A DNA stretch of 64,000 nucleotides, taken from positions 1 to 64,000 of IMG/VR virus record IMGVR_UViG_3300006056_000038; one strand, 5' to 3'. Positions 1-64,000 of the stretch are shown here, in pieces. Numbering within the stretch: position 1 is the first letter of the stretch; each line of letters opens with the position of its first letter. The notes beneath the pieces were generated by a model. It worked only from the letters and a program-made list of their open reading frames with translations. It ran no database searches and was not told the origin of the DNA. Origin of the DNA: a virus. The position numbers were made by a program, and so were the translations under genes.

Positions 1-675
1 TATTTCCCCACGCAGGATGTCATCCACCCAGAATTCGACCGAATCCTGACCTATCACGATGAGATAGTGGTTCACATCGTTCGGGTTCGGCGTATATATG
101 TTGGCCACTTGTATCTCAGTGCCATTGTTGTTCATTACACCATTTACCTGACCTCCTGAAACACGGAAGAACACTCCATCGGTAGGAGCGGTCGTAGTGG
201 TGGCGTAACCAAGACCGAACTCTATAACGCTGCTCGCTTGAAGTGTATTGGAGAACTTCAATTGCATGTCCACATAAAGCGGATACGTGTTGAATATGGA
301 AAAGGTTCTGAACGTCTGTATCCTTGACACAGCACCTGATGCGACCGATCCGCCTGCATTCATCTTCAGGAACCCGCCCGCCAATGTGACCGTCTGCGTA
401 GATGTCACGCCAACGTATTTCGATGTATTCAATACGGTGTGATTGAATGTATCCTGCCATAGGATCTTATCCATTCCGACCCTCGTACGATAGTCCTGCG
501 AAGCATCCGATTGACGCTGCAACCTGACCCCGGTAACATTACCCGCATCGACCTCAGATACGATGGATACATATCCTGCGCCCGACAGTATGGTCGGAAG
601 GTTCACCTTCAAATTACCGTCCTGATCGACATCAGCAAGCGTGTTGGACGTTGCTCCCCTGATTATTACGCTCAT
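1..675 (-). CDS. Partial ORF (at least 225 codons, continues beyond window start), probable virion structural protein (tail fibre or baseplate associated)
   Basis: Manual translation of the minus strand from the ATG at 675-673 gives an uninterrupted 225-codon frame (MSVIIRGATSNTLADVDQDGNLKVNLPTILSGAGY...) that is not in the supplied ORF track because it runs off the edge. It is preceded by a CTATTTATCC motif (688-697) and lies directly downstream of the tail-fibre-like gene. Confidence 0.5.
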   Translation of the reverse strand, partial: MSVIIRGATSNTLADVDQDGNLKVNLPTILSGAGYVSIVSEVDAGNVTGVRLQRQSDASQDYRTRVGMDKILWQDTFNHTVLNTSKYVGVTSTQTVTLAGGFLKMNAGGSVASGAVSRIQTFRTFSIFNTYPLYVDMQLKFSNTLQASSVIEFGLGYATTTTAPTDGVFFRVSGGQVNGVMNNNGTEIQVANIYTPNPNDVNHYLIVIGQDSVEFWVDDILRGEI

Positions 676-699
676 GCTGTTGTTTTGGGATAAATAGAT

Positions 700-2052
700 T
701 CAGTTGATGATTCTATAGACTATGTTGTACTGACCCCAAGTGCCTCTTTCGGCGTATCCGTTTATGGTAAAACTCGCCCCATCGACAATATCGCTATTCG
801 CGAAAGAAACCTCGTCCAAAAGCGCCTCGCCGACCTCGGGATGATCATTTGAAGCAACAATCCCGATCAATATGATCGAATTGGTCCTTACACTGGAATT
901 ACTGACGGTGGTGGATGTAAAGTCGCCCTCTCCTCCTGAAGAAAAACCAAAATCCACGATAGTTGTTCCAGTGGTCGGGTTCAACAGGAAAATTGAGGAT
1001 ATATCCGCCGAACCGGAAAATATTGTTGATGCGGAAAGGGATGAAGCCGATAGCGACGCGAACGAAGGCGAAACAACAACATCCACCGTTTGCGCCCCGA
1101 AGGTTCCGCCCGTCACAAGATTGCTCCCCGGAATTATCCTCGTTCTCGATTGCTGAATGATCGTCGATAAGTCCGTTCCGCCCGAAAGAATCAGACCTCC
1201 GTTGATCGTTTGCGATCCGAGGCTCGTTGCGTTGACGGTTCCAACGAGCAACGAAGAAGCGGTCACGTCGGTAAACGTGGGATCCGCCACTACGTCCACC
1301 GTGGGACGGGTTATCGTTCCTCCGGTCGTTGTGTTGGTTCCGTTCTGGACGTAGGTCGGGGCGATGAACTCCTCCGCCTGATCGCCCACGTAGAGGTGTT
1401 TCTTTACGGTGAGATTATCGACGGAGATTTTTGTGGCCTCGATTTCGTTGAACGCCCCAACGTTGGCCCCGATATATTCCGCTTCGATCTGCGGGGAGGA
1501 GAGCAGCGTTAAGGCCTTCAATGTGTTCACGTTCACATCAACGAACGTCGGGTTATCGACGACGTTCACCGATGGGCGTGACGGCGTTCCTCCTGTGAAC
1601 GTGTTGCTTCCGTTTTGGACGTAGGTCGGCGTTCCTCCGGTCATATATCTGGACAAATCGGTCCCCGCGCTATAGAACGTGGTGGCGGAAACAGCCACAG
1701 CGAACATCGAAGCGAAGGAAGGCGACAACACGATGTTGATCGTTGGTCGTGATGGCGTCCCACCTGTGAACGTGTTGTTTCCATCTTGTACAAACGTAGA
1801 TGTTCCGCCCATGAGCAAGCTCAAATCGGTGGACCCGCTGTAGAACGTGGTGGCAGACACCGCGCTACCTCCCGAATAGAGCGCCCGTAGGAAATCGTAC
1901 TGCAAGGGACCAACGTGGTAGTACACCTGCTCCTCGCCGCCCAATAACGATGTCAATCCACTATGTGAGGGCGATGGTCGAAGATAGATGGACATGCTTG
2001 CTTTTGGCGCAGAACGGAGAAAATCAGCGCCTCCGCAATAAATAGAATACAA
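700..2052 (-). CDS. Tail-fibre-like repeat protein; the probable true start is the ATG at 1995 (the track start at 2052 is TTG)
   Basis: Three tandem ~50-aa repeats (YVQ[ND]G[NST]NTFTGGTPSRP[TS][IV]N[IV]V ... FYS[GA][GS]TDLS). Gly/Thr/Ser-rich beta-type composition typical of fibre or receptor-binding proteins. Position is next to the tail tube gene. Confidence 0.55.
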   Translation of the reverse strand: MYSIYCGGADFLRSAPKASMSIYLRPSPSHSGLTSLLGGEEQVYYHVGPLQYDFLRALYSGGSAVSATTFYSGSTDLSLLMGGTSTFVQDGNNTFTGGTPSRPTINIVLSPSFASMFAVAVSATTFYSAGTDLSRYMTGGTPTYVQNGSNTFTGGTPSRPSVNVVDNPTFVDVNVNTLKALTLLSSPQIEAEYIGANVGAFNEIEATKISVDNLTVKKHLYVGDQAEEFIAPTYVQNGTNTTTGGTITRPTVDVVADPTFTDVTASSLLVGTVNATSLGSQTINGGLILSGGTDLSTIIQQSRTRIIPGSNLVTGGTFGAQTVDVVVSPSFASLSASSLSASTIFSGSADISSIFLLNPTTGTTIVDFGFSSGGEGDFTSTTVSNSSVRTNSIILIGIVASNDHPEVGEALLDEVSFANSDIVDGASFTINGYAERGTWGQYNIVYRIIN

Positions 2053-2087
2053 ACGGGCCCGGAAAAATATTCCACCGCTTATTTATG
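2036..2087. promoter_or_regulatory. Divergent regulatory region carrying two copies of the CTATTTATGG-family motif, one per orientation
   Basis: CAATAAATAG (2036-2045; reads CTATTTATTG on the minus strand) and CTTATTTATG (2078-2087), between the divergent genes 700-1995(-) and 2111(+). Confidence 0.5.
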
Positions 2088-2110
2088 AGAAATCTAACAA
2101 ACAGAAACAC

Positions 2111-2599
2111 ATGGCAGATATGTTCCGTCCCGTGCCGATCGATCAGGAGCCGCTCCTCCAGAACAGGTTCGCACTTGAATTCCCGACCGAACTGGGCATC
2201 GACCAGTTCATTGTTCAGACGGCCAAGAAGCCGAGCTTGAACATCAACGCCGTTGAGATCCCTTACATGAACGGGATGAACTTCGTAGCTGGCCGCGCTG
2301 TGTGGCAGCCGATGGAGATCAGCTTCATCGACGTGATCGGCCCCTCCACCACCCAGAAGGTCATGGAATGGGTGAACCTTCACTACGAAAGCTCCACGGG
2401 CCGTGCAGGCTATGCCGTTGGTTACAAGAAGAACCTTGTACTGAAGGCTCTTGACGGCCCGGGCGTAGAGGTGCAGAAATGGACTTTGATCGGTTGCCAG
2501 ATCGTCACCGCCGATTGGGGCGACTTCGATTACGGCGCGGACGAGGTGGTTCGTATCAACCTCACCATCCAGCCCGATCGTTGCATCCTGAGCAACTAA
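2111..2599 (+). CDS. gp19: Tail tube protein, T4 gp19-like
   Basis: 162 aa. The segment IPYMNGMNFVAGRAVWQP...D matches the T4 gp19 pattern IPVGFMNRKINVAGDRTFDDW...D, with a similar C-terminal D/W/Y-rich end. T4 gp19 is 163 aa. Confidence 0.6.
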   Translation: MADMFRPVPIDQEPLLQNRFALEFPTELGIDQFIVQTAKKPSLNINAVEIPYMNGMNFVAGRAVWQPMEISFIDVIGPSTTQKVMEWVNLHYESSTGRAGYAVGYKKNLVLKALDGPGVEVQKWTLIGCQIVTADWGDFDYGADEVVRINLTIQPDRCILSN

Positions 2600-4409: not shown

Positions 4410-4423
4410 TGCTCTATTTATGG
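4405..4423 (+). promoter_or_regulatory. Palindromic CTATTTATGG motif (GAAATAG tg CTCTATTTATGG), 14 nt upstream of the ATG at 4438
   Basis: Inverted repeat AAATAG/CTATTT overlapping the TAG stop of the upstream gene. Confidence 0.5.
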
Positions 4424-5028: not shown

Positions 5029-5274
5029 TCACCTCGCGCTTTCGTAGAAACGGAAGATTGCTATTCCCACGAAGGCCACTCCAAAGAGCGCCAAGCAGAA
5101 CTTCTGAACGAAGGTCGCCATGGGCGCTGGGTCCCATTGCAGGATGACAGGGTCCGGGCCGATCTGAACGAATACCGACATAAGCACCAATAGGAACAAG
5201 GCGCCGAAGACGGCCCATCCGTGCTTGAAGAAGATGTATATCCAGTTCATGGTTTTTGGGTTTAGCGGTTTCAC
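5029..5274 (-). CDS. Small membrane protein (two predicted TM helices)
   Basis: 81 aa; hydrophobic stretches WAVFGALFLLVLMSVFVQI and FCLALFGVAFVGIAIF. Confidence 0.45.
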   Translation of the reverse strand: MKPLNPKTMNWIYIFFKHGWAVFGALFLLVLMSVFVQIGPDPVILQWDPAPMATFVQKFCLALFGVAFVGIAIFRFYESAR

Positions 5275-5741
5275 TTAGCGGGACCCCAACGCGGCCCATG
5301 GTAAGGACACGGATCGCAATTGCATGCGGCTCCGGCTTGCGGAACCTGCTTATTGCGTTGATGGCGGCGCGATTTCTGCACCTCACTGATGCCGATGGCC
5401 ACGGCCGTGGTGCCAACCAGCGCAGGGACCGGGGACTTGGCGGCCGCTCCCTGCACGCCACCTACCACCTCGCCGAGCACTTGAGGCTTGACGGTGGATT
5501 GATAGACGGCCTTTGAGGTGCCTACGATACCGGCGTTCCAGATGTCATCCCACACTGATGTGGACTTCTGGTAGGGACAATAGCAGCCGTGCTTTTCCTG
5601 TTGCCGACGGACCTTACGCGAGGGGCGATGGGCCTCATGGTTCTCGGCGGCGGGAGGGACCGAATCCGGGTCGTAATAGTCGGATTGGGCAAATGAGGTA
5701 ATGGATGCAAGCAACGAAAGGGCTAGAATGAGATGCTTCAT
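5271..5741 (-). CDS. Secreted Cys-rich protein with N-terminal signal peptide
   Basis: From MKHLILALSLLASITSFAQ^SDYY...: a classical signal peptide with an ...SFAQ cleavage region of the kind common in Bacteroidota. Eight Cys residues in the mature part. Confidence 0.45.
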   Translation of the reverse strand: MKHLILALSLLASITSFAQSDYYDPDSVPPAAENHEAHRPSRKVRRQQEKHGCYCPYQKSTSVWDDIWNAGIVGTSKAVYQSTVKPQVLGEVVGGVQGAAAKSPVPALVGTTAVAIGISEVQKSRRHQRNKQVPQAGAACNCDPCPYHGPRWGPAK

Positions 5742-5764: not shown

Positions 5765-7606
5765 TCATTTTGTTGCAGGCGTCCACGAGAAGCGCATATT
5801 ACCGCAATCCCAGATGCGGTCCATGCCGAGGAGTTGGGCGAGTTCCCATTCCTTCATGGAAAGCGCGTCCTCTATACTCATCAACTGGGCTTCCGCGACT
5901 TTTTTGGCAACGACATCTTTTCGATATTGGAATCGATGATGACGATTCCAATAGTTGCCTTTTTTGAAATACCAATAGTTGGGCTTACTGAAGCCTTCGA
6001 ATTTGAACCCGTTCTTGACATATACGGTTCTATCTGGATCGTTGCCGCTCCATCCTATGTCAGCGAACGTGGCTATTTCCTTTGGATTATGTTCAGTGAT
6101 GAAATACGACAGCAATTTCGAAAAAGCTCCCACCACATTATATCCGATTAGGCTGGAAAAACGTATCAACTCAAAAACTCCCTCCTTATCCTCCTTGGTA
6201 CCCAGCGCTCTTCGCCTTCCCCCGAAAGACATTGCCGATACGATCTCATTCTCGTACATGAGACCAAATGTAATTCTTGATGGGGCATCACCTTGTATGT
6301 GGTTTTTTTCGAAGAAGTCGCGCTTATCGACGAATTCCAATGGTACCACCCTGCATTTTCTGGCGCCCAATTTGACTTCACATATACCGATGGACGACAA
6401 TATTCTTGAGATTACCACATCCGGACGGTCCACTATTTCATCTTCGAATACATGGATCAATCTTAATCCACTCTCTTGCGCCATCTTGGTCTTCATCAAG
6501 TGGTATTCCTTTGTTTTACCTCCTCCACGTTCTGCATGATAGTAATTTCCGTTGAATTCTATCGCTATCCCATGGTCTTCCAACACAAAATCCAATTCAT
6601 ATTTCTTGATGTGTCTTCTGGAATTCTCTACGAATTTTATCTCTCTCTCAATCAATGCTTTTCTCAATGCGTTATGCGTCATTGGACTTGTTGGAGAAGG
6701 GAAGCATTTTCTACATATGGGAATGGTTGGACTACAGAATTTTCTCTTGAATTCATTGCTACAGACTAAGCATCGAAATTCATACTCTTTATATCCAATG
6801 CTATCTCTGAATCCAGTGAATTCACCCATGAGCTCTATGTCGTTCGCATTCAGTTGCTGTATCAATGCATACTGCTTTGTACTTTCTATTTTTGAGAACC
6901 ATGCTTCCGTCACCTTTGCTTTATATTCAGATGTTTGAGAATAATACTCCACACCATATCTCTCCTTCGATGTTTTTTTTGCCCTATCCAATATTTCTTC
7001 GCTCTTAAGCGGAACATCAACACCATAATTATTCATCAGGGTTTCCTTGGCTTTCTCCTGAAAATCCAACCGCTTCATTGCATGCGTCTCGCCATAAAGA
7101 TCCATCATTGTCTCTGCGGCCTTCTCTCTATTATTGTAGTTCTCATCCCCATGCACCTCTGATTTTGTTTCACGATTCTGGGGCATGTTGTTGTAATTCT
7201 CGTCCCCGTACTTCTCCAATTTCGTTGCCTTGATCTTTGCTGTTCTTTCATCTCCATGTTCATTCAGCGTATTACGCATGGCTTCCGCAGCCTTCTCTTG
7301 GATCTCCTTCACCATGAACGCGCTCTCCACTCCGTACTTCTCCAAGACCGCCTCCTTGGTTCGTTCCATGCGCGCGGCGATGTTCTCCGGACGTCCCTGC
7401 CAGTCCAAGCGGCATGGTTCGGAACAGAACCTGCGCTCGCGTTTGATGCGTTCTTCGAATTGGGTCGAACACACAGGGCACGTCCGGGTCTCGTAGGTCT
7501 TCCCTCGTTTTATTACGTTCGAGCATTCGCGTGAGCAGGTCTCGCTCTTCGGGAATTTCTTCGTTCCGCCGCATACGGCGCATCCATTTGTTATTTCATT
7601 TGACAT
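5765..7606 (-). CDS. Multidomain protein: N-terminal zinc ribbons, six tandem ~24-aa YG[VD]E..EK.KET repeats, and a Vsr/DUF559-like (PD-(D/E)xK) endonuclease-type domain; homing-endonuclease-like
   Basis: CAVCGG...CSRECSN and CPVCST...CSEPC zinc ribbons. Repeats KYGVESAFMVKEIQEKAAE / KYGDENYNNMPQNRETKSE / VHGDENYNNREKAAET / LYGETHAMKRLDFQEKAKET / NYGVDVPLKSEEILDRAKKT / RYGVEYYSQTSEYKAKVTE. YELDFVLEDHGIAIEFNGNYYH resembles the Vsr-like endonuclease core. Confidence 0.5.
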   Translation of the reverse strand: MSNEITNGCAVCGGTKKFPKSETCSRECSNVIKRGKTYETRTCPVCSTQFEERIKRERRFCSEPCRLDWQGRPENIAARMERTKEAVLEKYGVESAFMVKEIQEKAAEAMRNTLNEHGDERTAKIKATKLEKYGDENYNNMPQNRETKSEVHGDENYNNREKAAETMMDLYGETHAMKRLDFQEKAKETLMNNYGVDVPLKSEEILDRAKKTSKERYGVEYYSQTSEYKAKVTEAWFSKIESTKQYALIQQLNANDIELMGEFTGFRDSIGYKEYEFRCLVCSNEFKRKFCSPTIPICRKCFPSPTSPMTHNALRKALIEREIKFVENSRRHIKKYELDFVLEDHGIAIEFNGNYYHAERGGGKTKEYHLMKTKMAQESGLRLIHVFEDEIVDRPDVVISRILSSIGICEVKLGARKCRVVPLEFVDKRDFFEKNHIQGDAPSRITFGLMYENEIVSAMSFGGRRRALGTKEDKEGVFELIRFSSLIGYNVVGAFSKLLSYFITEHNPKEIATFADIGWSGNDPDRTVYVKNGFKFEGFSKPNYWYFKKGNYWNRHHRFQYRKDVVAKKVAEAQLMSIEDALSMKEWELAQLLGMDRIWDCGNMRFSWTPATK

Positions 7607-7665
7607 TGTACCTACAAGTATTGCTGTTTATAAGTACAAATATATGAAATATTACTTAATAATAG

Positions 7666-7712: not shown

Positions 7713-10121
7713 TCAGAACTCTTCGAAGTTCGCGCCAGTGGGCAGGATTTGGTATGAGATGTCAATGAATTCTGCCACTCTTGTCGGCTTGATCTGGATC
7801 TTACCGATCAACATGTTCCGGTCGATCGTATCGGCGGTGTTGTTGCTCGCATCCATCGTTACCTTGAAGCCCACCAGACCTCTTTGGTTCTGGATCTGGA
7901 GCAACAGCGGCTCGACCTTTGCAAGGAACTGATCGCGCAGGGTCTGGTCGTTCTGTTCGAACACCAAGGTGATAGCGGCTGCGGACACCAAGCGCTCGAT
8001 GGTCAAGAGCAATCTGCGAACGTTGATACGGTCCAGAGCGCTCTCCTTCACCTGCAAGGTCTTCTGACCCCAGATCAACACACCGTTCTGGGTGCTGTCC
8101 ATGATCGGATTGATACGTCCGGCATACAACACGTCACGTTGAGTCTTGGACAGGCGCACATCGGCGCGGATCACGTTGCTCGGCATTTCACCACGGTTGG
8201 TACCAGCAACACCGTTCCAGCTCTTGTACTTGTTGTCGGTGTAAGCGATGGCGCGGGCCACGGCGAAGCTCGGTGGCAGATAGATCTGACGGCTACTGCT
8301 GACGTCCGATACTTGCACCCAAGGCCAGTAAGTGGCGCCGTAGGTGGTGTCGATACCGGTGAGATCAAGCGCTTCCACGGCCTCGTCAGGAGTTCCCTTG
8401 GTCTGACCAACGGTCAGGCGTGGGGAGTCGATGACGTAGAACAGATCGGCGCGTTCCTCGACCATTTCCAAGGCATACTTCACCAGTTCTTCGTTGTTCT
8501 GGTAATCGATACCCGATGTGCTCAGGACGTTCACGTCCACGCTGGCATCGCTGGCGAAGCAGTCGATCGCATCCTTGTAGGCCTGCACGTTCGACAGTTC
8601 ACCTTCAGCGAATTCTTCGTATGCATTGTCGTACTTCTTGTACTTGTCCCATCCATCGAAACCACCGTAAGGCACAACGGTGAACTTGAGCTTCGCGCGG
8701 TCCAGAGCACCTGCGGAGTTGGTGTAAGCCGTCAAGGAATTCTTGTTGCCGGATGCGAATTCAGTAGGCAACACGGTGTTCTCCATGTGGAAACCGAGCG
8801 TGGTGGTCTTACCGGTGGTGATGGCGCCTTGGAATTGGAACAGGTCATGCTCCACGTTCTGAGCGGCGTTGCGCACACCCACGGCGGAAGAGGTCAGCGC
8901 GGTGTAGCCCAGCTCGGAAACGCCCAAGTAGGTCTTTGGCACAGAGTCCCCCGAGAAGTATGTGGTCTTGTAATAGATGTTCGGACGGATCGTCGCGGTG
9001 TCAGCCCCCACGGAAGTCGTGGTGGAACGAAGCTCGTAACCACGGAAACCGGCAGGAACGGTATCGACAGGGAAACTGTCGGCCATTTCGATCTCGATGA
9101 AGTTTGACTTGCGCACGTACGGCTCATCACCAACGGTACCGATCATGCGGGCGATGAAGCGCGAGTTGTCGACATCCAATGAGAGACGATTGTGGCGCTC
9201 AACGATCGTGAAGGACGTGGCGTCGCTACTATCGTAGTAACGTACAACGATGTCGAACAACTTGTTGTTGAGGTCGATGTTGGCGATGGAGATCTTGACC
9301 TCCCTGTTGGAGGCGTCACCATCGCTGCGGGTGTGGACACGGAACAGGTTCTTCACCGCTCCGCCGATCACGCGCGATACGATCCAAGGCGTCACCGCAT
9401 TGGTGTATCCTGTAGCGTAGTTGGCAAAGTCAGGATTGGTGTCCGGTACGTAGATGAGCGAGGCATTGATGCCGACGATCTCACCACGAGCGGAGGCTTC
9501 TCTCACGAAGTGTGGGAAGATACTCTCGACATACAGGTTAGTGGTATCGGGAATGATCTTCGGGCTCTTGCCGATGGCCTTCGCCAAGTAGTCCGTACGG
9601 GTCTCATCCAACGAAACGCTGAGCGTATTGGCGCTCATCAGGCCGGTGGTACCGCACAGGACGAATGACGAAAGGGCCGAACCTGTGACCGACTGCCAGT
9701 TGCCGAGGACCACATCGGTGGAAGCGCTGAAATACGGAACACCCGAGGCGTCCTTCTTTGAGCGAATGACGGCGAGGGTGGTACCGGACTTCGAACCGCC
9801 CCCTGTGGTACCCGTGAGATTCGCCACCAACAGCCATGCGGGCGAGTTGGTGAAACCCACCTTACCGAGGACCCGGCTGACGAACAACTCGCTCGACTGG
9901 GTCAGGAAGGCATCGGTGGTGTAAGTAGCCGGGAACTCGTAGTTCGTCCCACCGAAACGCAGTACGTTCTCATCTGCGGTGGAGATCTTGATGGCCTCAA
10001 AGGCCGGACCCTTGGGGAATTTACCAACGACCGCGAGCTTGGTGATACCAATTCGCGAGGCGAAGGCGGTGAAGTCCTGTTCGGTTGTGTACACACCGGG
10101 GGAGACGAATACTGTTGCCAT
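7713..10121 (-). CDS. gp18: Tail sheath protein, T4 gp18-like
   Basis: 802 aa. The C-terminal region LDRINVRRLLLTIERL...ADTIDRNMLIGKIQIKPTRVAEFIDISYQILPTGANFEEF aligns with T4 gp18 FDRINVRRLFNMLKTNIG...PSVIDRNEFVATFYIQPARSINYITLNFVATATGADFDEL. Confidence 0.8.
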   Translation of the reverse strand: MATVFVSPGVYTTEQDFTAFASRIGITKLAVVGKFPKGPAFEAIKISTADENVLRFGGTNYEFPATYTTDAFLTQSSELFVSRVLGKVGFTNSPAWLLVANLTGTTGGGSKSGTTLAVIRSKKDASGVPYFSASTDVVLGNWQSVTGSALSSFVLCGTTGLMSANTLSVSLDETRTDYLAKAIGKSPKIIPDTTNLYVESIFPHFVREASARGEIVGINASLIYVPDTNPDFANYATGYTNAVTPWIVSRVIGGAVKNLFRVHTRSDGDASNREVKISIANIDLNNKLFDIVVRYYDSSDATSFTIVERHNRLSLDVDNSRFIARMIGTVGDEPYVRKSNFIEIEMADSFPVDTVPAGFRGYELRSTTTSVGADTATIRPNIYYKTTYFSGDSVPKTYLGVSELGYTALTSSAVGVRNAAQNVEHDLFQFQGAITTGKTTTLGFHMENTVLPTEFASGNKNSLTAYTNSAGALDRAKLKFTVVPYGGFDGWDKYKKYDNAYEEFAEGELSNVQAYKDAIDCFASDASVDVNVLSTSGIDYQNNEELVKYALEMVEERADLFYVIDSPRLTVGQTKGTPDEAVEALDLTGIDTTYGATYWPWVQVSDVSSSRQIYLPPSFAVARAIAYTDNKYKSWNGVAGTNRGEMPSNVIRADVRLSKTQRDVLYAGRINPIMDSTQNGVLIWGQKTLQVKESALDRINVRRLLLTIERLVSAAAITLVFEQNDQTLRDQFLAKVEPLLLQIQNQRGLVGFKVTMDASNNTADTIDRNMLIGKIQIKPTRVAEFIDISYQILPTGANFEEF

Positions 10122-10185: not shown

Positions 10186-10195
10186 CATAAATAGG
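10186..10195 (-). promoter_or_regulatory. CTATTTATG motif upstream of the sheath gene
   Basis: CATAAATAGG on plus (reads CCTATTTATG on the minus strand), between the terminator at 10221-10260 and the sheath ATG at 10121. Confidence 0.45.
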
Positions 10196-10220: not shown

Positions 10221-10260
10221 AGAGAAAAAAAGAAAGCGGAACCTTGTTCGTTCCGCTTTC
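10221..10260 (-). terminator. Intrinsic terminator (minus strand) after the 102-aa gene
   Basis: Minus strand reads GAAAGCGGAAC-gaacaag-GTTCCGCTTTC followed by TTTTTTTCTCTT. Confidence 0.7.
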
Positions 10261-10283
10261 TTTGCCTTTCATGCTATTGTGGA

Positions 10284-10592: not shown

Positions 10593-10638
10593 AGGGTTGG
10601 TTTTATGGTTGTCCCCATAAATAGCAGGGCAATGATGG

Positions 10639-11350: not shown

Positions 11351-11848
11351 CAGGTAAATAGCAAGGCGCATGGAACGATGCGGCATCATTCAAAACCACT
11401 TCCCCTCTTTCCTTCCGAATGAAAGGATTTCCATATCAATCCGGCATTCAAGGCGGATCATCAATTATTTTCTTCCTAGAACTTGACTTTGTCAAAAGAG
11501 AACGTATCTTTGCCTCGCTTTTGCCGCCCTATAAAGCTGTTTCTTTTTGAGGGGATTTGATCAGATGGGCGGACTTTGTACTGCAAGCGCAAGTTGCGAG
11601 CAGGGCAAAATTCAAACCAACCAACTCACGTAAAAAATCGTGGGGAGGAAAGGAGGGGGTTTGAATTTTGGAACTCTTCGAGTTCTTTTCCCTGACTTCG
11701 CAAGATCTCCCTTCTGGAATTCTTCTACTACAGAATATCATCCAGAAAAGAGAGAGAAATTTAATACTTGATGTAGAAGAATTCTACATCATAACAAGGG
11801 AAAAAATCGATGTTAGAGTTGCTCTCCATGCAGAAGGAAAATTCCCTC

Positions 11849-15456: not shown

Positions 15457-15479
15457 CATAAATAGCTCTCTATTTATGG
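15457..15479. promoter_or_regulatory. Palindromic motif CATAAATAG-ctct-CTATTTATGG in the divergent region
   Basis: Serves the start of 15452(-) (about 4 nt) and 15496(+) (16 nt). Confidence 0.5.
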
Positions 15480-50027: not shown

Positions 50028-50037
50028 CTCAGTCACC

Positions 50038-50736: not shown

Positions 50737-50749
50737 AATACACTGAAGC

Positions 50750-51859: not shown

Positions 51860-51869
51860 CAAAAACAAA

Positions 51870-53418: not shown

Positions 53419-53776
53419 GTATTGCTTCGATCTGGATGGTACAATATGCGAAACCAAATCACTTGGACAAAGCTATGCAGATGTCAACCCTCTTCCCGGC
53501 GCAGTAGAAACACTGAAAAAACTAAGAACCCAAGGGCACTACATAATAATTCTCACCGCGAGGAACATGTCAACCTATGACAATAATTTGGGAAAAGTCA
53601 TTGCAAATCAGGCGCCAATTGTCCTAGATTGGCTGAGAAAATACGAAATCCCATATGATGAGTTGTTGTTCGGAAAGCCGAATGCGGACTTCTTCATTGA
53701 TGATAAAGGGGTTCAATTCACCAACTGGAATGAGCTAAACCAAAAACTGCTTATAGATGAGAAAATTTCTAATTGA
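53396..53776 (+). CDS. HAD-superfamily phosphatase
   Basis: Motif I FDLDGTI, motif II IILTAR, motif III K....FFIDD; 126 aa. Confidence 0.6.
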   Translation: MISMKQFRYCFDLDGTICETKSLGQSYADVNPLPGAVETLKKLRTQGHYIIILTARNMSTYDNNLGKVIANQAPIVLDWLRKYEIPYDELLFGKPNADFFIDDKGVQFTNWNELNQKLLIDEKISN

Positions 53777-54563
53777 TACAGCCAATCAGGACTACATACG
53801 AAACCTTTGGAAATCCTTAAACGGCACCGTTGATAACAAGCTTGTTCAAGGAATAACAACCAATCCAAATGCGTTTTTCAAAACGAACGAATTGCACCTG
53901 AAGGACTGGGAGAAATCTCTCCCGAAGCTTTGTGAAATTGTATCAGAGATAAGACAGGACGACGCTGGATATGTGCATATTCAAGCTCCGAATTCATCCA
54001 TGAATGGAGATGCTATGTTGAGATATGCCGAGCATGTCCATAAACTAACCGATGGAAATACCAAGATCGCCATAAAAATTCCACCATTTGTTCGAGCGCT
54101 GAAAGCGGTAGACCAACTAAGGGAAATGGTCAAGATCAACGTCACTGGAATAGCAGACTGCTCAACTGCTTTGAAATGCATCACGTATGGTGTTGACTTT
54201 GTCAGTATCATACCCGGAAGAATGGAGGAGGTCGGGATAGATGCCAAAAAGCAGATATCCTTCATCCTGCAATCATGCAGGAAGAATTCTGAAATAATCA
54301 CAGGGTCTATGAGAACAATAGACGGATTGATATGGGTTTTTCAGTATGATACCATACCCACGATTGGGGAGAAGGTTTGGAATATTCTACTGGAAAACAA
54401 CAACCTTCAAAAAGTCATTGACATTGACTATAGCATGGCGCACGATGATAGTGAATTTTCTCCAGAGATCAATGAGTTGAATTCCAACCTGTCAAATTCC
54501 TTTTTCCAACAAATGGATGAATGTGGGAGAACGTGTTTTGAAGACTGGAAAAAATCATCATAA
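53757..54563 (+). CDS. Transaldolase/fructose-6-phosphate-aldolase (TalC/Fsa) family enzyme
   Basis: FLIDTANQDYI...GITTNPNAF matches the L(Y/F)LDT..(L/V)..I...G(V/I)TTNP signature. KIAIKIPPFVRALKAV aligns with the Schiff-base lysine region (VVKVPVTAEGLAAIKML of E. coli Fsa). Confidence 0.6.
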   Translation: MRKFLIDTANQDYIRNLWKSLNGTVDNKLVQGITTNPNAFFKTNELHLKDWEKSLPKLCEIVSEIRQDDAGYVHIQAPNSSMNGDAMLRYAEHVHKLTDGNTKIAIKIPPFVRALKAVDQLREMVKINVTGIADCSTALKCITYGVDFVSIIPGRMEEVGIDAKKQISFILQSCRKNSEIITGSMRTIDGLIWVFQYDTIPTIGEKVWNILLENNNLQKVIDIDYSMAHDDSEFSPEINELNSNLSNSFFQQMDECGRTCFEDWKKSS

Positions 54564-54575
54564 AGCTCATTTAAC

Positions 54576-55394
54576 ATGTTGGGCGTACAAGCAGGCAATG
54601 AAGCCATAAAGAACCTGATCCGGTCAGGAAAGCCATTCCTCGTGAACCGCATGCGGTCCGAGGTGGATGTCATTTTCAAATCCATCAAAGGTCTCCCTCT
54701 GAACAAGGAGAACCACGATGACCTGTACATCAAATGCGGCGTATACCCCTATGGGGACATGGAGCAAATTGGGCCCTTCATCCGGGAGACCATCACCTCG
54801 ATGAACTTGGCCGACGCATGGGGCTATTGCACATTCTACTGCCCCTATCAGGACTGGCTCATCAAGAACGTATCCCGGACCCAATGCGTGTTCGACTTCG
54901 TTGCCCTTGAGCCGATCTACCATGAAGTACCATGGACCCTTGAGCTTGCAGGTAAGAAAGTGCTCATCGTCCATCCTTATGTGGATACAATGAAACGGCA
55001 GGAATCGAAGCTTCTGGAGATCGCAGGCGGCAAGGAACAGTTCAGGGACGTGGAGTTCAAGTACATCAAGGCGGTGCAGTCGATGACCGGAAATGCCCCG
55101 CACGGGTCGTGGAGCGAATCCTACCAAACAATGAAGGATGAGATCGCCGACGCAGACTTCGACGTGGCCCTTCTGGGGTGCGGCGGATACGGCATGCCAC
55201 TGAGCGGATACATCAAGTCCATCGGCAAGAGCGCTGTGTACATCGGAGGCGGGCTTCAATTGATCTTCGGCATCAAAGGGAAGCGATGGGACGACTCGGA
55301 CATGTCCAAACATTACAACGAACACTGGGTGCGCCCCTCCGTGGAAGAAACCCCGGAGAACTACATGCTCCACGAAAACGGAGCGTATTTTTGA
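54576..55394 (+). CDS. Hypothetical protein (possible glycosyltransferase-like)
   Basis: 272 aa; GC content returns to the backbone level here; conserved-looking block FDVALLGCGGYGMPLSGYIK. Confidence 0.4.
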   Translation: MLGVQAGNEAIKNLIRSGKPFLVNRMRSEVDVIFKSIKGLPLNKENHDDLYIKCGVYPYGDMEQIGPFIRETITSMNLADAWGYCTFYCPYQDWLIKNVSRTQCVFDFVALEPIYHEVPWTLELAGKKVLIVHPYVDTMKRQESKLLEIAGGKEQFRDVEFKYIKAVQSMTGNAPHGSWSESYQTMKDEIADADFDVALLGCGGYGMPLSGYIKSIGKSAVYIGGGLQLIFGIKGKRWDDSDMSKHYNEHWVRPSVEETPENYMLHENGAYF

Positions 55395-56050
55395 TGAAGC
55401 TCCTCTGCTATTTCACCCCGTCCCACAAGGACATGTTCGAGGGCTTCCTCAAACGAAGCTGCGACCTATTTGGGGAGCATGAGATTATCGCCTTCATGGA
55501 CCAAGAGCAGTTGTCCGACGACGGCTCATTCTACAGCAAGGGATTCCACGAGACGGTGGTCAAGAAGATGGATTTCATTCTTGGTTCCAACGCGTGGGAT
55601 GACACGGAGCATTTCATCTTTTCGGATGCTGACGTCATTTTCACGGCGCCCACCCAAGAGTACTTTCTGGAGCAGATCGCCGAGCATGACATCGTGTTCC
55701 AAAGCGACCAGACCACTTACAACAGCGGGCTGTACGTGTTCCGCAATAACTCCAAGGTCAAGGCGATGTTCGAAGAGGCGGTCCGCGTAAAGGACCAACA
55801 CTTCGGGGACCAGTTGTGCATCGATGCTGCCCTGCGCGCCGTTCCGCTCAAGTGCAAGGCGTTTGACAAGACCATCTTCAACATCTCCTTCTACATGGGA
55901 GGAAGTCTTTGGGACAACGCCAGCACCATTCATTTCCCCAAGCACATGCGAGCCTACCATGCCAACTTCATCGTCGGTGTGGACAACAAGATAAAAGCGC
56001 TGACCCAAGCCCATGACCGATTCGTTGCGCCCAAGCTCAGCCACGCATAA
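55394..56050 (+). CDS. Putative GT-A nucleotide-diphospho-sugar transferase (DxD type)
   Basis: Start MKLLCYFTP (trimmed from track ORF 55178-56050). FIFSDADVIF (DxD), ...DQTTYNSGLYVFR. Confidence 0.45.
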   Translation: MKLLCYFTPSHKDMFEGFLKRSCDLFGEHEIIAFMDQEQLSDDGSFYSKGFHETVVKKMDFILGSNAWDDTEHFIFSDADVIFTAPTQEYFLEQIAEHDIVFQSDQTTYNSGLYVFRNNSKVKAMFEEAVRVKDQHFGDQLCIDAALRAVPLKCKAFDKTIFNISFYMGGSLWDNASTIHFPKHMRAYHANFIVGVDNKIKALTQAHDRFVAPKLSHA

Positions 56051-56849
56051 GTACCCGTTCTACCACGAGGGGCTTTACTTGGAGGAATACTTCCACCGCC
56101 ATCGGAAGCGCCATGACGGGCGGCAATACATCGATGCGTTCTGGACCAACATCTACTCCAACCGCTCCTTTGCTGGCATCCATAGCGTGGATGTGCAATC
56201 GGAGCTCGACAAGCTGGACCCGAACGGGCGATATTTCACCGTATGCCAGAACGACGACGGGGTCTTGGAACGCCTGCCAAAGGACACGCTGAAGTTCTGC
56301 GCCGGAGGCAACAACGTCGATGATGCCACCATCCCCATTCCTCTATTGGCGTCGCCCATTCCCGGCATTGACCTTTCCCGGGAGAAGGACCTGCTGGCGA
56401 GCTTCGTCGGAAGCAACACCCATCCTTTGCGTGCTGAGATGCACAAGACACTTCGTGGTCGTCCGGGATTTTCGGTACAGATGAAGAATTGGTCCCTTGA
56501 ACTTCCGGACGCTTCCGCAAGGCAGTTCATGGACCTGTCATCTCGCTCGAAGTTCATGCTCGCCCCGAGAGGATATGGAAGGACGAGTTTTCGTCTCTAC
56601 GAGGCCTTCCAGTTCGATTGCATTCCCGTGTATATCAGCGATTCGATGTTCCTTCCTTATTCTGATGTCATAAATTGGAATGATTTTACTATATTGATAA
56701 CTCCCGATAGAATCGGGGACATAGAGAATATCCTTAATGCTTCATTGACGAATGGTGAATATGACAGGATATTGAACAACGTCAAACAAAACAAACATCT
56801 GTTTACCATGGAGTACATGGTCGAATATATCGAAAGCAAAACAACATGA
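56013..56849 (+). CDS. Exostosin-like glycosyltransferase (GT47-type C-terminal domain)
   Basis: SRSKFMLAPRGYGRTSFRLYEAFQFDCIPVYISDSMFLPYSDVINWNDFTILI matches the exostosin/GT47 signature (S.F.L.P.G...S.R..EA...GCIPVI.SD...LPF.D..DW..FS). Confidence 0.5.
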   Translation: MTDSLRPSSATHKYPFYHEGLYLEEYFHRHRKRHDGRQYIDAFWTNIYSNRSFAGIHSVDVQSELDKLDPNGRYFTVCQNDDGVLERLPKDTLKFCAGGNNVDDATIPIPLLASPIPGIDLSREKDLLASFVGSNTHPLRAEMHKTLRGRPGFSVQMKNWSLELPDASARQFMDLSSRSKFMLAPRGYGRTSFRLYEAFQFDCIPVYISDSMFLPYSDVINWNDFTILITPDRIGDIENILNASLTNGEYDRILNNVKQNKHLFTMEYMVEYIESKTT

Positions 56850-57616
56850 GAACATTAGGCATTTCCATCGACGGCGTCATTCGGGACTTCAACTCCCAGT
56901 TCCATAAGACCTACGTCAAGACGTTCATCCATAACGATTCGCTCGTCGCCGCCAATATCCCTTCACATGCCGAAGCGCGCATGAACGGCTTGGGAGATGG
57001 AGACTTCGTGGCACAAGAGACCACCGAAAGTGACGAACTCATGGTGCAGCAGGCTGTTGAGAAAAAGGAAAAGGACCTGATCTCCCTACCCGTCAACAGC
57101 GACGACTTGCTCAACCACTATCGCTTCGAAGAGGGGAAGATGGATTTCATTACCACGGCAGATGGGAAGGAACCCGATAAGATCATCACGCCGAAGGATG
57201 CCTTGAACAAATTCATCTTCGAGGATTATCCGTTCCAGATCTTCGGCATGGCCTCCGAATACGATGGTGCCAATGAAATGGTGAACCGCATCCAAGGCTA
57301 CGGCCGTCAGAAGGAATTCTTCAACGTCGTTCTTCTGTCATCCGCGCAGAAACAGGCCATTCCCGCTACTTACAACTTTTTGGCGCGTTGCCATTCACGC
57401 GCCAAGTCGGTCGTATTCGTGGAGCGTGAAGAAGACAAGTGGGACCACTGCGACGTGCTCATTGATGCGAATCCACGCGCCATCCAAGCGGTGCCAACGG
57501 ACAAGTTCGTCATCCGCATTTTGCGCGACTGGAACCAATATGACGACATCGAGTACACTTATTCCAATCTGAAGGAGGTGCTCAGTTCCGGCGTTCTGGA
57601 CAAGCTGTTCAAGTGA
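56846..57616 (+). CDS. Hypothetical protein
   Basis: 256 aa. The N-terminus ISIDGVIRDF is reminiscent of, but does not satisfy, the HAD DxDGx motif. Confidence 0.4.
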   Translation: MRTLGISIDGVIRDFNSQFHKTYVKTFIHNDSLVAANIPSHAEARMNGLGDGDFVAQETTESDELMVQQAVEKKEKDLISLPVNSDDLLNHYRFEEGKMDFITTADGKEPDKIITPKDALNKFIFEDYPFQIFGMASEYDGANEMVNRIQGYGRQKEFFNVVLLSSAQKQAIPATYNFLARCHSRAKSVVFVEREEDKWDHCDVLIDANPRAIQAVPTDKFVIRILRDWNQYDDIEYTYSNLKEVLSSGVLDKLFK

Positions 57617-57642
57617 GTCGATAACCTCATATCCATTTCTGG

Positions 57643-57668
57643 AATGGGCGACAATATTGTCGCCCATT
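57643..57668 (+). terminator. Intrinsic terminator
   Basis: AATGGGCGACAA-tat-TTGTCGCCCATT followed by TTCTTTTTGC. Confidence 0.65.
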
Positions 57669-57714
57669 TTCTTTTTGCACAAAACTCCCTTTGTTTTCGG
57701 TAGCCTCCCATTCT

Positions 57715-58950
57715 ATGTTTATTCAAAGCGATAATAGCATGGCAGAGAACATGGAAACTACCGAAGCGGTGATGGACGCCCCGACCGGGAATCTATCCCA
57801 CAACGCGTTCATCGATCAGGTGATCGACAAGATCAAGAACAACGATTTCACCGTCCACTTCTATTCCCCGGCGATGAACACGCCAAGTGGTGGCATCGGT
57901 GTATTGCTGCGTCTGGCCCGCGCCCTGAAGGACAATGGACATAGGGTAAAGGTGTGGTATGAGCCACGGTTCGACCAAAAGGCGAGCATGGATGCCTCAA
58001 CAAAGGCCAAGAAGCGCATCGACCTGTTCGACCAGTTCCATCCGAACTGGGTGGACTTCAACATCTCGGACATCGACTTCGTCCCGCTGGGTGATTCGAA
58101 GATCAATTTCGTGAATGGAGAGTCGCAGGAAGCGACGCCGTTGAAAGTGGACACACAGGACATGTTCTTCATCCCTGAGGGTTTCCCCAATATCATGGAA
58201 AAGACGGCGGGTGTGACGTGCAAACGCATTGTGCTGGCCCAAAGCTGGCTCTACGTCCTGTCGGGCATGCAGAACGGTCAGACGTGGCAGAATTTCGGCA
58301 TCAAGGATGTTGTGAGCGTTTCGGACGCCATCACCGAATACTTGGATACGGTAATGCCGGGTCTTTCCATCAAGCAGTTGAAACAAGGGATCAACCGGGA
58401 GATCTTCCATCCCCCCACCAAGCGGTCGGAAAAGTATCCATGTATCGGCTTTGTCAATGGACGTGATTCCATCTCGCAATTGAAGCTGATCAACATGATC
58501 AAGATGTTCTCTTTGGCCTGCCCTCATTTCCGTTGGGTGAAGTTCATCGAGCTATCCAACCTGAGCCGCGAGGAGTTCGCAGAGCGCATCCGTTCCTGCG
58601 CATTCGTGCTCTACGCCGATGACGTGGCTGGCTTCGGCACACTACCTCTTGAGGCCATGGCCTGCGGAACGCACGTGATCGGATGGGCCGCCTTCGGTAG
58701 CAAAGAATACGTACAGAAGGACAATGGCTTCTGGTGCAACAACGGCGACGTGTTCCAGATGGCGGAAATGCTCGGCATTGCGCTGGACAAGTGGTTGAGC
58801 GGTGAGATGGACCTTGAAGACACGCAGGAAACCTATGAGGAAGTCCTCAGCAGGTATACCGTGGAGGGAGAAAAAAGTCGCATTACCGAGATCGTAGAAG
58901 AATATAAAACAGAAAGAACACATGAACTTGAAAGAGCTAAAAAACAGTGA
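57715..58950 (+). CDS. Glycosyltransferase, GT-B fold (GT4-like)
   Basis: Start uncertain (57691/57715/57749). C-terminal E-x7-E-type motif LYADDVAGFGTLPLEAMACGTHVIGWAAFGSKEYV. Confidence 0.55.
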   Translation: MFIQSDNSMAENMETTEAVMDAPTGNLSHNAFIDQVIDKIKNNDFTVHFYSPAMNTPSGGIGVLLRLARALKDNGHRVKVWYEPRFDQKASMDASTKAKKRIDLFDQFHPNWVDFNISDIDFVPLGDSKINFVNGESQEATPLKVDTQDMFFIPEGFPNIMEKTAGVTCKRIVLAQSWLYVLSGMQNGQTWQNFGIKDVVSVSDAITEYLDTVMPGLSIKQLKQGINREIFHPPTKRSEKYPCIGFVNGRDSISQLKLINMIKMFSLACPHFRWVKFIELSNLSREEFAERIRSCAFVLYADDVAGFGTLPLEAMACGTHVIGWAAFGSKEYVQKDNGFWCNNGDVFQMAEMLGIALDKWLSGEMDLEDTQETYEEVLSRYTVEGEKSRITEIVEEYKTERTHELERAKKQ

Positions 58951-61221: not shown

Positions 61222-61242
61222 CTCTATTTATGGGAAATAGAG
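61222..61242 (+). promoter_or_regulatory. Perfect palindromic motif CTCTATTTATGGGAAATAGAG, 5 nt upstream of the ATG at 61247
   Basis: CTCTATTT-ATGGG-AAATAGAG inverted repeat. Confidence 0.5.
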
Positions 61243-62941: not shown

Positions 62942-63360
62942 TGGCAGCTTTATTCCCCATAGATGATGACAACATGCGGTCCGAAGAGATGGCGGACTTC
63001 CTGTTGTTCCTTCTGAATGAGGACAGGATACCCATTCCTCCGCTCACTCTTCCGCAGATCATTGCGGCGAAGACACGGCCCGGGTTGAGCGCCGATCAGA
63101 TCGCATCCCGGATCATCAGCAGGTTCCCTGAAGCCGGGATACCAGTTGGCCCTTTGAAAGGCGGTACGCAGAACTCCATGGAGCAGCTTATCAAGTTGAT
63201 ATGCGAAGAGTTTGTGGATGCCCTACAGAACGACATGCGCGTAGACATTGCGGTCGACCCCGGAATGATCGGACAAGGTACAGGGGCCAATGCCGCAGGG
63301 CCCGTATTGACCGTTAACACCACCTTGAACCCACACACGGGAACTGGCGTCGCAAGATGA
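62941..63360 (+). CDS. Hypothetical protein
   Basis: 139 aa; ATGA overlap with the upstream gene. Confidence 0.4.
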   Translation: MAALFPIDDDNMRSEEMADFLLFLLNEDRIPIPPLTLPQIIAAKTRPGLSADQIASRIISRFPEAGIPVGPLKGGTQNSMEQLIKLICEEFVDALQNDMRVDIAVDPGMIGQGTGANAAGPVLTVNTTLNPHTGTGVAR

Positions 63361-63554
63361 ACAACAACAGCATTGATCAACTCGAAAGCATCATCGTAGA
63401 AGTGCGCGATATGATCGCCGCCATGTGCGACGATATGGATGCTGCAACTTCCATATTGGAAAAGGAAACGATCAGAGTAGCTATCTTGAAGGAGGAGGAG
63501 CGGTTGCTCGATCTCATCGCACTTCAGAGTCACATGAATACAAAATCCTCCTGA
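63357..63554 (+). CDS. Small hypothetical protein
   Basis: 65 aa, coupled between neighbouring genes. Confidence 0.3.
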   Translation: MNNNSIDQLESIIVEVRDMIAAMCDDMDAATSILEKETIRVAILKEEERLLDLIALQSHMNTKSS

Positions 63555-63557
63555 CCA

Positions 63558-64000
63558 ATGCCGGGATTCGATCATCTATCAAAAGCACTGCACAGGAACA
63601 GCGAGCAGGATAAGACTGCCCAAGAGGGTAGGTCCATTCGTGATAAGTATCCCGCCATCGTCGTTAAGTCCGATGATCCGCTGGACCAAGGCAGGATCAT
63701 TGCACGTATCGTGGATTTCGATGAAACCGGAGCCATAAAAGGCGGGCGTGACCGTGACATACCGGACGACAAACTGCCGTTCGCCGTCCCGTCGTTCCCA
63801 AGCTTTCTTCATGCCCCTCCGCTTGAGGGGGAGATGGTCTACATCTTCTTGGAGAATCCGAACGTCAATACCTCCCCTCGTTATTGGACGGGACCGATCA
63901 TCACCTCGAAGCTGAAGCTGAAGTTCCAATCCATCAATGAGGCCATAAAGGTCTTCAACTACACCCAGTTCGGCCTCAACTCGACGGTCCCCACACGCCC
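63558..64000 (+). CDS. Baseplate hub/spike protein N-terminal OB domain, T4 gp5-like (partial, runs off the window)
   Basis: Manual translation with no stop to the end of the window. PAIVVKSDDPLDQGRIIARIVDFDETG...DIPDDKLPFA is similar to the T4 gp5 N-terminus (VGVVEDVMDPSLIGRVRVRVHGDDPDIPTEDLPWA). Confidence 0.45.
   Translation, partial: MPGFDHLSKALHRNSEQDKTAQEGRSIRDKYPAIVVKSDDPLDQGRIIARIVDFDETGAIKGGRDRDIPDDKLPFAVPSFPSFLHAPPLEGEMVYIFLENPNVNTSPRYWTGPIITSKLKLKFQSINEAIKVFNYTQFGLNSTVPTR

Follow-up and report, generated by a model that had tools for sequence, protein, structure and literature searches.

Expression signals of an uncultured Far-T4-type myovirus point to a Bacteroidota host

The Far-T4 group of phages, which is marked by a longer capsid protein, has RM378 as its founding isolate (PMC4360716). 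The hosts of this group were declared unresolved in 2015, in a paper from which the terms promoter and Shine-Dalgarno are absent (PMC4360716). Until recently, its cultured hosts comprised only Rhodothermus and Flavobacterium; Bacteroidetes hosts were predicted in 2020 for a marine Far-T4 genome from homologue counts, as well as for the group (PMC7198788). Here we compare with these phages a stretch of 64,000 nucleotides (nt) of viral DNA (IMG/VR record IMGVR_UViG_3300006056_000038, positions 1 to 64,000), called the window below, and describe the promoter and translation-initiation signals of its genes. We read it as part of a Far-T4-type myovirus with expression signals adapted to a host from the Bacteroidota (Bacteroidia-like), and put the probability of this reading at roughly 0.78.

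A self-trained codon-model gene call yielded 74 genes in the window, with predicted lengths and starts in agreement with those called independently on six public contigs in which the capsid gene is identical. The phage is present in the samples ERZ27257534 (contigs k141_596645 and k141_2632613) and SRR13208891. Protein families were assigned by PHROG and Pfam scans, and relatives were identified by tblastn. The genes to which the text refers most often are the following.

25925–27565, minus strand: major capsid protein of the T4 gp23 type, 546 residues (phrog_138, 1e-65; Pfam Gp23 on public contigs)
7713–10121, minus strand: tail sheath (phrog_23, 2e-64; tblastn)
2111–2599, plus strand: tail tube (phrog_4542, 1e-24; tblastn)
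12410–13579, minus strand: neck/head-completion protein, gp13-like (phrog_211; faint Phage_T4_gp13)
28988–30811, minus strand: prohead protease, Peptidase_S77, with an intein (phrog_207, 3e-44, in two stretches; Pfam S77 and Intein_splicing)
36199–37005, minus strand: PhoH-like ATPase (Pfam PhoH, 8e-65)
21599–23008, minus strand: SPFH/Band_7 membrane protein (Pfam Band_7 on public contigs)
33562–35883, plus strand: VWA-domain gene (Pfam)
40979–41308, plus strand: thioredoxin gene (Pfam)

Judged by its predicted capsid, sheath, tube, and PhoH proteins, the phage is an uncultured Far-T4-type myovirus with a T4-like head and contractile-tail module. The gp23-type capsid, sheath, tube, neck, and PhoH are common to the window and to Far-T4 phages (RM378; Lake Pavin contigs, PMC4360716; TARA G405, PMC7198788), and PhoH is a hallmark or frequent accessory marker of Far-T4 contigs (PMC4360716, Table 1). 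The window differs from them in its guanine–cytosine (GC) content, ~50% compared with ~30–43%, as well as in a glycan-biosynthesis island of 17 kb and in the intein that interrupts its prohead protease, and its capsid is only 30% identical to that of RM378. Capsid identity is 30–45% to RM378, immuto, Mel-JY01, and LR756508, and none of the public relatives found exceeds 75%. Good matches to the structural proteins are confined to LR756508 (an uncultured huge phage), Mel-JY01, immuto, and RM378, all at 25–45% identity, with matches to the gp13-like neck protein limited to immuto, Mel-JY01, and LR756508.

An earlier note on this DNA, made from the sequence alone, had called the phage T4-like and proposed that its capsid be placed by phylogeny. 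In a neighbour-joining tree the capsid falls inside the RM378-containing Far-T4 clade, apart from T4 and cyanophage P-HM1, and it is not grouped with Mel-JY01; its nearest neighbours are contigs binned into metagenome-assembled genomes (MAGs), with 68–75% identity. The capsid protein is 546 residues long, compared with 521 in T4 and 455 in P-HM1. The g20 portal and g17 terminase were not recognised in the window, in scans that included no dedicated test of these markers, and both genes probably lie outside it.

Shine-Dalgarno depletion and initiation regions

The earlier note had seen no Shine-Dalgarno (SD) sequences upstream of strongly expressed genes, and the contexts that it quoted for the capsid (25925–27565, minus strand, ...caaacaagaaaATGG), the sheath (7713–10121, minus strand, ...ccagaacagatATGG), and the protease (28988–30811, minus strand, ...cttcagataatATGG) are correct. 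For a quantitative scan, an SD core was defined as GGAG, GAGG, or AGGA wholly within positions −20 to −4, and the 20 nt before internal ATGs served as control. One gene caller was used for all sequences, and the reference phages were analysed as 50-kb stretches. In the window, SD cores precede 5 of 73 starts (6.8%) and 217 of 1206 internal ATGs (18%; Fisher p = 0.011), which bears out the reported lack of SD and shows it to be a depletion rather than a mere absence. The proportions of starts and of internal ATGs preceded by an SD core are as follows.

Window: 6.8% of starts, 18% of internal ATGs
Immuto (Flavobacterium), two stretches: 6% and 6% of starts, 20.5% and 19% of internal ATGs
LR756508: 10% of starts, 18% of internal ATGs
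RM378: 19.6% of starts, 10.8% of internal ATGs
P-HM1 (Prochlorococcus phage): 33% of starts, 14.5% of internal ATGs
Mel-JY01 (Microcystis phage), two stretches: 44% and 22% of starts, 4% and 5% of internal ATGs
T4, two stretches: 56% and 51% of starts, 8% and 4% of internal ATGs

The depletion is alike in both halves of the window. Canonical SD motifs before most genes, which the earlier note had named as the result that would speak against its view, were looked for, and among the 73 starts a single one, at 55394, has a core at usable spacing. The AGGAGG before the start at 33495 lies upstream of the promoter box, within a hairpin. Across the entire window, GGAGG is significantly more frequent than expected (178 copies compared with 131 ± 11 in dinucleotide shuffles), so its absence from the initiation regions is not an effect of composition. 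Internal SD-like sequences are not avoided, as would be expected if the host ribosome ignores them. SD-less starts behind a G-poor, A-rich region are the pattern described for Flavobacterium johnsoniae, in which the ribosomes sequester the anti-SD sequence.

The description of the upstream regions as A-rich also holds: positions −20 to −1 contain 35% A and 16% G, with a peak of A (0.40–0.47) at −15 to −11 and with G at 0.09–0.20 per position. This peak resembles the A-12/A-13 determinants of F. johnsoniae, in which A at −3 and −6 likewise acts as a determinant of initiation (PMC6847099); in the window, A reaches only 0.33–0.34 at −3 and −6.

Host-type and phage-type promoter boxes

Promoters of the Bacteroidota primary sigma factor consist of a −33 TTTG and a −7 TAnnTTTG element (PMC6847099, PMC3155529, PMC7797042), with transcription starting 4–5 nt after the G of the −7 box (PMC6847099). 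The earlier note had pointed to a single arrangement of this style; the signal is real and much stronger than that lone example. Nine of 73 genes have a co-oriented TAnnTTTG in the 60 nt before them, compared with 1.4 on average and never more than 6 when the upstream regions were shuffled 200 times. The density of TAnnTTTG is 2.05/kb in these 60 nt and 0.06/kb elsewhere (34-fold), with no enrichment in the window total (17 copies, 22 expected). TTG is found 19–21 nt upstream of six of the nine intergenic boxes and of none of the eight intragenic ones (background 0.065, binomial p ~5e-6). Any base change in the TTTG part abolishes the upstream enrichment, except for the form TAttTATG; boxes ending in TTTA, TTTC, or TTTT occur upstream of no gene. 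TATAAT is found 0 times upstream of genes and 9 times elsewhere, and sigma-70-type promoters in the window show no enrichment and are mostly intragenic. In turn, the hexamers of the window boxes (TATCTT, TACCTT, TAGCTT) are poor sigma-70 −10 hexamers. The host-type boxes are located as follows.

7637–7644, minus strand: −7 box TATATTTG, 30 nt before the DUF7487/DUF559 endonuclease-like gene 5765–7606
11483–11512, plus strand: promoter TTGACT-N19-TATCTTTG in a 499-nt gene-free gap, with no open reading frame (ORF) after it
19969–19999, plus strand: promoter TTG-N20-TAGCTTTG, 15 nt before gene 20015–20632
23014–23021, minus strand: −7 box TATCTTTG, 5 nt before the SPFH ATG, with TTGACA 10 nt upstream
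25771–25801, minus strand: promoter TTG-N20-TACCTTTG, 4 nt before the ATG of 23082–25766
32079–32109, minus strand: promoter TTG-N20-TATTTTTG, 6 nt before the ATG of 30894–32072 (intein paralogue)
33533–33540, plus strand: −7 box TATCTTTG, 21 nt before the VWA gene 33562–35883
40917–40946, plus strand: promoter TTG-N19-TAGCTTTG, before the thioredoxin gene 40979–41308
41309–41340, plus strand: promoter TTG-N21-TATCTTTG, 17 nt before 41358–42836, the first gene of the glycan operon

The example given in the earlier note, upstream of the SPFH gene, stands in part: the TATCTTTG box 5 nt before the ATG is a TAnnTTTG box, but TTGACA is only 10 nt away from it, and the pair therefore fits neither the sigma-70 nor the Bacteroidota −33 geometry. 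The window boxes share with those of Bacteroidota the invariant T, A, and TTTG of the −7 element and the TTG at 19–21 nt, in a setting that also has no SD, an A-rich tract near −12/−13, and internal GGAGG that is not avoided. In F. johnsoniae, where the consensus is TAHHTTTG, G at −10 is rare; two of the nine window boxes (TAGCTTTG) have it.

Host-type boxes precede the SPFH, VWA, and thioredoxin genes, the glycan operon, two endonuclease-like genes, and the free-standing intein paralogue, and none stands before the recognised virion genes of the window. The accessory and mobile genes would thus be transcribed by unmodified host RNA polymerase from TTG-N19-21-TAnnTTTG, a use that is suggested by the positions of the boxes. 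The 499-nt gap without genes (11350–11848) carries, besides its host-type promoter, a GGAGG-rich run at 11640–11660, of a kind otherwise kept out of non-coding DNA in this genome. This gap has no convincing ORF and no Rfam match, in line with the window as a whole, in which Rfam found nothing, and a structured RNA was considered and rejected there, the z-score of the fold being only −1.5.

A second box, CTATTTAT, is present in 13 exact copies, with 0.76 expected, all of them intergenic and co-oriented with the next gene. When the one-base variants TTATTTAT, ATATTTAT, and CTATTTAC are included, the same placement holds for 20 of 23 copies; of the 27 TATTTA hexamers in the window, 21 are followed by a start within 70 nt. 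In about two-thirds of the cases G follows the box, which gives TAttTATG; TAnnTATG is thus one position apart from the host −7 box TAnnTTTG and is the sole other variant that is enriched. The phage box is not accompanied by an upstream TTG or −33 element. It precedes the sheath, tube, and protease genes, the gene in the scaffold position, and neck-region and baseplate-side genes, at the positions listed here.

690–697, minus strand: CTATTTAT, 14 nt before ATG 675
2038–2086, divergent boxes: CTATTTAT on the minus strand (2038–2045) and TTATTTAT on the plus strand (2079–2086), the latter 24 nt before the tail tube gene
4414–4421, plus strand: CTATTTAT, 16 nt before ATG 4438
10187–10194, minus strand: CTATTTAT, closely following a strong terminator hairpin (10229–10263) and 65 nt upstream of the sheath ATG
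10617–10624, minus strand: CTATTTAT, 24 nt before ATG 10592
11354–11361, minus strand: variant CTATTTAC, 4 nt before ATG 11349
15458–15477, divergent palindromic boxes: minus strand (15458–15465), 5 nt before ATG 15452, and plus strand (15470–15477), 18 nt before ATG 15496
18034–18053, divergent boxes: CTATTTAC on the minus strand, 4 nt before ATG 18029, and CTATTTAT on the plus strand, 16 nt before ATG 18070
20672–20679, plus strand: variant ATATTTAT, with an in-frame second ATG (20684) 4 nt after it
28953–28960, minus strand: variant TTATTTAT, 21 nt before ATG 28931, whose gene stands between those for the protease and the capsid
30833–30840, minus strand: CTATTTAT, 21 nt before the protease ATG, abutting a terminator hairpin (30840–30873)
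33502–33509, minus strand: CTATTTAT, 6 nt before ATG 33495
36168–36175, minus strand: CTATTTAT(G), the likely true start being the in-frame ATG 18 nt downstream
37039–37046, plus strand: CTATTTAT(G), the likely true start being the in-frame ATG 15 nt downstream
40851–40858, minus strand: variant TTATTTAT, 39 nt before ATG 40811
40954–40961, plus strand: variant ATATTTAT, 17 nt before the thioredoxin ATG 40979, downstream of the host-type box
61224–61231, plus strand: CTATTTAT, 15 nt before ATG 61247

Three further phage-type boxes are found in the flanks available on public contigs (~9.4 kb on the right and ~1 kb on the left). Palindromic double boxes (ATAAATAG-N4-CTATTTAT) stand between divergent genes at 15458–15477, 18034–18053, and 2038–2086, as well as at 13017–13055 of the right-flank contig L033, so that one short palindrome serves both directions. 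Strong GC-rich hairpin terminators are located at 10229–10263 and 30840–30873 (both minus strand), 39685–39732, and 35904–35931. Two of them abut a CTATTTAT box, creating terminator–promoter junctions before the sheath and protease genes, and a hairpin with a 20-bp stem lies between convergent genes at 39.7 kb.

Late transcription in T4 is carried out by gp55, gp33, and gp45 on TATAAATA. The window resembles T4 in having, before virion genes, a lone AT-rich octamer that is similar to the host −10/−7 element and has no upstream element, and in the use of host-type promoters for non-structural genes. The box itself is different, CTATTTAT(G) rather than TATAAATA; the latter occurs once in the window, at chance level and on the wrong strand, as the reverse complement of a CTATTTAT box. 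The gp55 of P-HM1 and the sigma factor of RM378, used as tblastn queries, gave no match in the window, which is part of a genome, or in the related loci, and no homologue of the RM378 sigma factor was found in immuto or Mel-JY01. From its placement and its likeness to the T4 system, the CTATTTAT(G) box is probably a late promoter, and it would be read by the host core polymerase redirected by a phage factor, as T4 gp55 does on TATAAATA. We found no paper describing this box. The k-mer method applied to upstream regions recovers TATAAATA for T4 and CTAAATA for P-HM1, and it places TATTTAT at the top of the list for immuto and TATTTAA (TTATTTA) at the top for RM378. Immuto (vB_FspM_immuto, Immutovirus), a phage of Flavobacterium sp. 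LMO8, resembles the window in this TATTTAT-core box before many genes, in SD below background, in A-rich and G-poor initiation regions, and in a similar gene order (protease, capsid, PhoH, neck, sheath, tube); it differs in a capsid with ~45% identity over the C-terminal half only and in a GC content of 36%.

The spacing between box and ATG, counted from the last base of either type of box, is bimodal, with eight genes at 4–6 nt, the others at 14 nt or more, and none at 7–13 nt. The eight ATGs are those at 11349, 15452, 18029, 23008, 25766, 32072, and 33495 on the minus strand and at 20684 on the plus strand. Since transcription in Bacteroidota starts 4–5 nt after the box, these genes are probably expressed from leaderless mRNAs, whereas the remaining promoter-proximal genes would have leaders of ~10–20 nt. 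The predicted leaderless share, 8 of ~28 promoter-proximal genes, is higher than the 5.5% reported for Flavobacterium psychrophilum (PMC9723704).

Host assignment

The SD depletion, the −33/−7 promoters, and the phage group all support the Bacteroidota host that the earlier note had proposed, at a probability of about 0.8, in agreement with earlier predictions in the literature for the Far-T4 group. Bacteroidia-like is a better description than the qualifier 'Rhodothermota-like', also offered there, since SD is enriched to some extent in RM378, where SD 5-mers precede 17.6% of starts and 3.4% of control ATGs. A further sign had been a signal peptide ending in SFAQ.

5271–5741, minus strand: small secreted protein with the signal peptide MKHLILALSLLASITSFA followed by QSDYY, Q at +1; no family match

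Gln at +1 of the signal-peptidase I site (the Q-rule) is a feature of Bacteroidetes and 'not the entire FCB group' (PMC5837995; FCB, Fibrobacteres–Chlorobi–Bacteroidetes). The SFAQ end is indeed present, but it is a single, non-specific case. A heuristic scan of all loci for further signal peptides returned almost only noise ORFs, none was found in the flanks on public contigs, and Pfam scans of the window revealed no Bacteroidota-specific domains, such as the C-terminal domain of the type IX secretion system.

Several observations weigh against the Bacteroidota assignment. The clear signal peptide just described, SFA/Q, is the only one in the window, and a protein of Mel-JY01 has an IFS/Q site too. 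Adenine at −3, which favours initiation in F. johnsoniae, shows no enrichment (0.33). In Mel-JY01, whose reported host is Microcystis, TTG-N19-21-TAnnTTTG occurs 14 times, nine of them upstream of genes, and two 50-kb stretches of immuto have none upstream of genes. The closest capsid relatives have a GC content of 30–36%, compared with 50% in the window, in which no gp55- or sigma-like factor was found. No direct link to a host, by CRISPR, tRNA, or co-occurrence, was obtained, and there is no tRNA in the window. Finally, a capsid scan of species-representative genomes gave 14 loci with mixed MAG labels, only 4 of 14 being Bacteroidota; the two closest relatives (74–75%) are labelled 'uncultured bacterium' and 'Deltaproteobacteria', and the other labels include a Prochlorococcus single-cell assembly, Gastranaerophilaceae, Planctomycetales, and Bacillota. 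MAG labels, however, cannot be trusted for contigs of lytic phages.

Cyanobacteria use SD sparingly, and a cyanobacterial host, as for Mel-JY01, would account for the absence of SD. Of the cultured phages, Mel-JY01 gives some of the closest matches (capsid 43%, sheath 34%, tube 40%) and, for the structural proteins overall, the best ones (34–43%), its region at 100–150 kb contains strongly conserved TTG-N19-21-TAnnTTTG boxes, and a capsid relative with 46% identity occurs in the Prochlorococcus assembly. However, the cyanophages are SD-enriched (22–44% compared with 4–5% in Mel-JY01, for which a cyanobacterial host is reported, and 33% compared with 14.5% in P-HM1), whereas the window is below background. 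The Mel-JY01 boxes also fit the sigma-70 geometry (TTGCAT-N17-TATATT), unlike the window boxes with their poor −10 hexamers; TATAAT never occurs upstream of window genes, and the capsid tree separates the window from Mel-JY01. Taken together, a cyanobacterial host is very improbable. In Mel-JY01 itself (positions 100001–150000), the 14 copies have the sharply conserved form AAAAGTTC-TTGCATA-N-TATATTTGTA, which is similar to the Bacteroidota −33/−7 element, yet the genes are SD-enriched; either these boxes are dual-purpose or the host assignment is worth a second look. That SD-poor initiation and the boxes are intrinsic to the Far-T4 lineage, served by phage factors and carrying little host information, is suggested by these boxes on a reported non-Bacteroidota host, as well as by the capsid relatives from MAGs, all of which are SD-poor and carry TATTTA boxes, whatever their label. 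Within the group, though, SD use tracks the reported host (present in Mel-JY01 and, partly, in RM378, and lacking in immuto), and the trait is therefore not fixed by lineage; moreover, phages depend on host ribosomes, and scans of the window revealed neither a translation factor of the phage nor a gene for a ribosomal protein. We regard this explanation, too, as having very little chance of being correct.

A host in another SD-poor or related lineage, such as Rhodothermota, Ignavibacteriota/Chlorobiota, or another low-SD phylum, rather than one of Bacteroidia type, would be compatible with the membership of RM378 (Rhodothermus) in the same phage group, with a GC content of 50% that is unusual for the group and nearer to the higher-GC relatives of Bacteroidia, and with the mixed MAG labels. 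It is nevertheless unlikely, given the SD 5-mers of RM378, the lack of TAnnTTTG enrichment in the RM378 stretch examined, and the description of the −33/−7 promoter and the Q-rule as features of Bacteroidetes (PMC6847099, PMC5837995). Lastly, wrongly assigned start codons could simulate an absence of SD, the starts being predicted and ambiguous at 36169, 37045, 20678, 1944/2052, and 5786/5741. The same caller, however, recovers 51–56% SD in T4, the gene lengths match the independent calls on six public contigs, and many genes share an ATGA overlap with their neighbour, so that no other start is available there; an artefact of this kind is extremely improbable.

Neighbouring genes and implications

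The intein of the prohead protease occupies approximately residues 92–478 of the product of 28988–30811 (minus strand). The gene directly upstream (30894–32072, minus strand) encodes a free-standing, 392-residue paralogue of this intein with 51% identity over 390 residues. The paralogue starts ...A-LVLTKSGW and the protease intein S-MILTSQGW. In a public variant of the same phage (contig L001, 7934–8578), the free-standing gene is kept and the protease is intein-less, with 214 residues.

Two other slots are occupied by nuclease-like genes. The one between the capsid and SPFH genes is variable: in the window it holds 23082–25766 (minus strand), an 894-residue fusion of a Ros/MucR zinc finger, a DUF559/Vsr-like nuclease, and an N6/N4 DNA methylase, and in the same public variant (L001, 11766–15188) it holds genes for 780, 166, and 186 residues instead. 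Between the tail genes, 5765–7606 (minus strand) encodes a 613-residue DUF7487 and DUF559 protein that matches PHROG homing/HNH endonuclease families (E 2e-104), and it is followed by the secreted protein (5271–5741) and then by a small membrane protein.

A further non-structural region is the glycan-biosynthesis island.

41358–58950, plus strand: co-directional genes, ~17 kb, SD-less throughout

It comprises genes for GT25, a GT10 fucosyltransferase, an epimerase/dehydratase, two FkbM methyltransferases, and a nucleoside triphosphate (NTP) transferase, as well as for a RibB-type DHBP synthase, kinase-like, HAD, and transaldolase-like proteins, GT47, and GT1. Its core is a trough in the GC content of the window (39–46% at 45.5–54.5 kb) in a phage of lytic type. 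A cassette in the island, consisting of the methyltransferase, RibB-type DHBP synthase, kinase-like, HAD, and transaldolase-like genes, is conserved on many metagenomic contigs (RibB 60–98% identity), and on the related contigs L013 and L014 it adjoins NTP-transferase and RuBisCO-large-like genes. This cassette may encode a route to an unusual activated sugar.

Lakes and oceans commonly harbour Far-T4 phages, and the hosts of these phages had previously been predicted only from homologue counts (PMC7198788). In a GC-rich member of the group, host-type signals stand out from the background, and the expression signals of this one (SD depletion, −33/−7 promoters, and internal GGAGG that is not avoided) point to Bacteroidota; the same simple SD test separates related phages with known hosts. 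While the host inference itself will not surprise a specialist, its added value lies in an explicit map of promoters and initiation, with both boxes and the predicted leaderless starts, and in a calibrated test of the signals.

We can speculate, tentatively and at somewhat less than even odds, that Far-T4 phages of Bacteroidota follow a previously undescribed two-tier transcription programme with a host-type and a late box. In such a programme, TTG/TAnnTTTG promoters would drive the accessory genes, and the late box CTATTTATG, a single base from the host −7 element (T to A at −7) and without a −33 element, would be read through a phage factor unrelated to T4 gp55. Late transcripts would often begin exactly at the AUG, yielding leaderless late mRNAs. 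If this is true, the reported host of Mel-JY01 would be put in question, and the pair of boxes, together with SD depletion, would allow a host phylum to be assigned from sequence alone across the widespread, host-orphan Far-T4 group.

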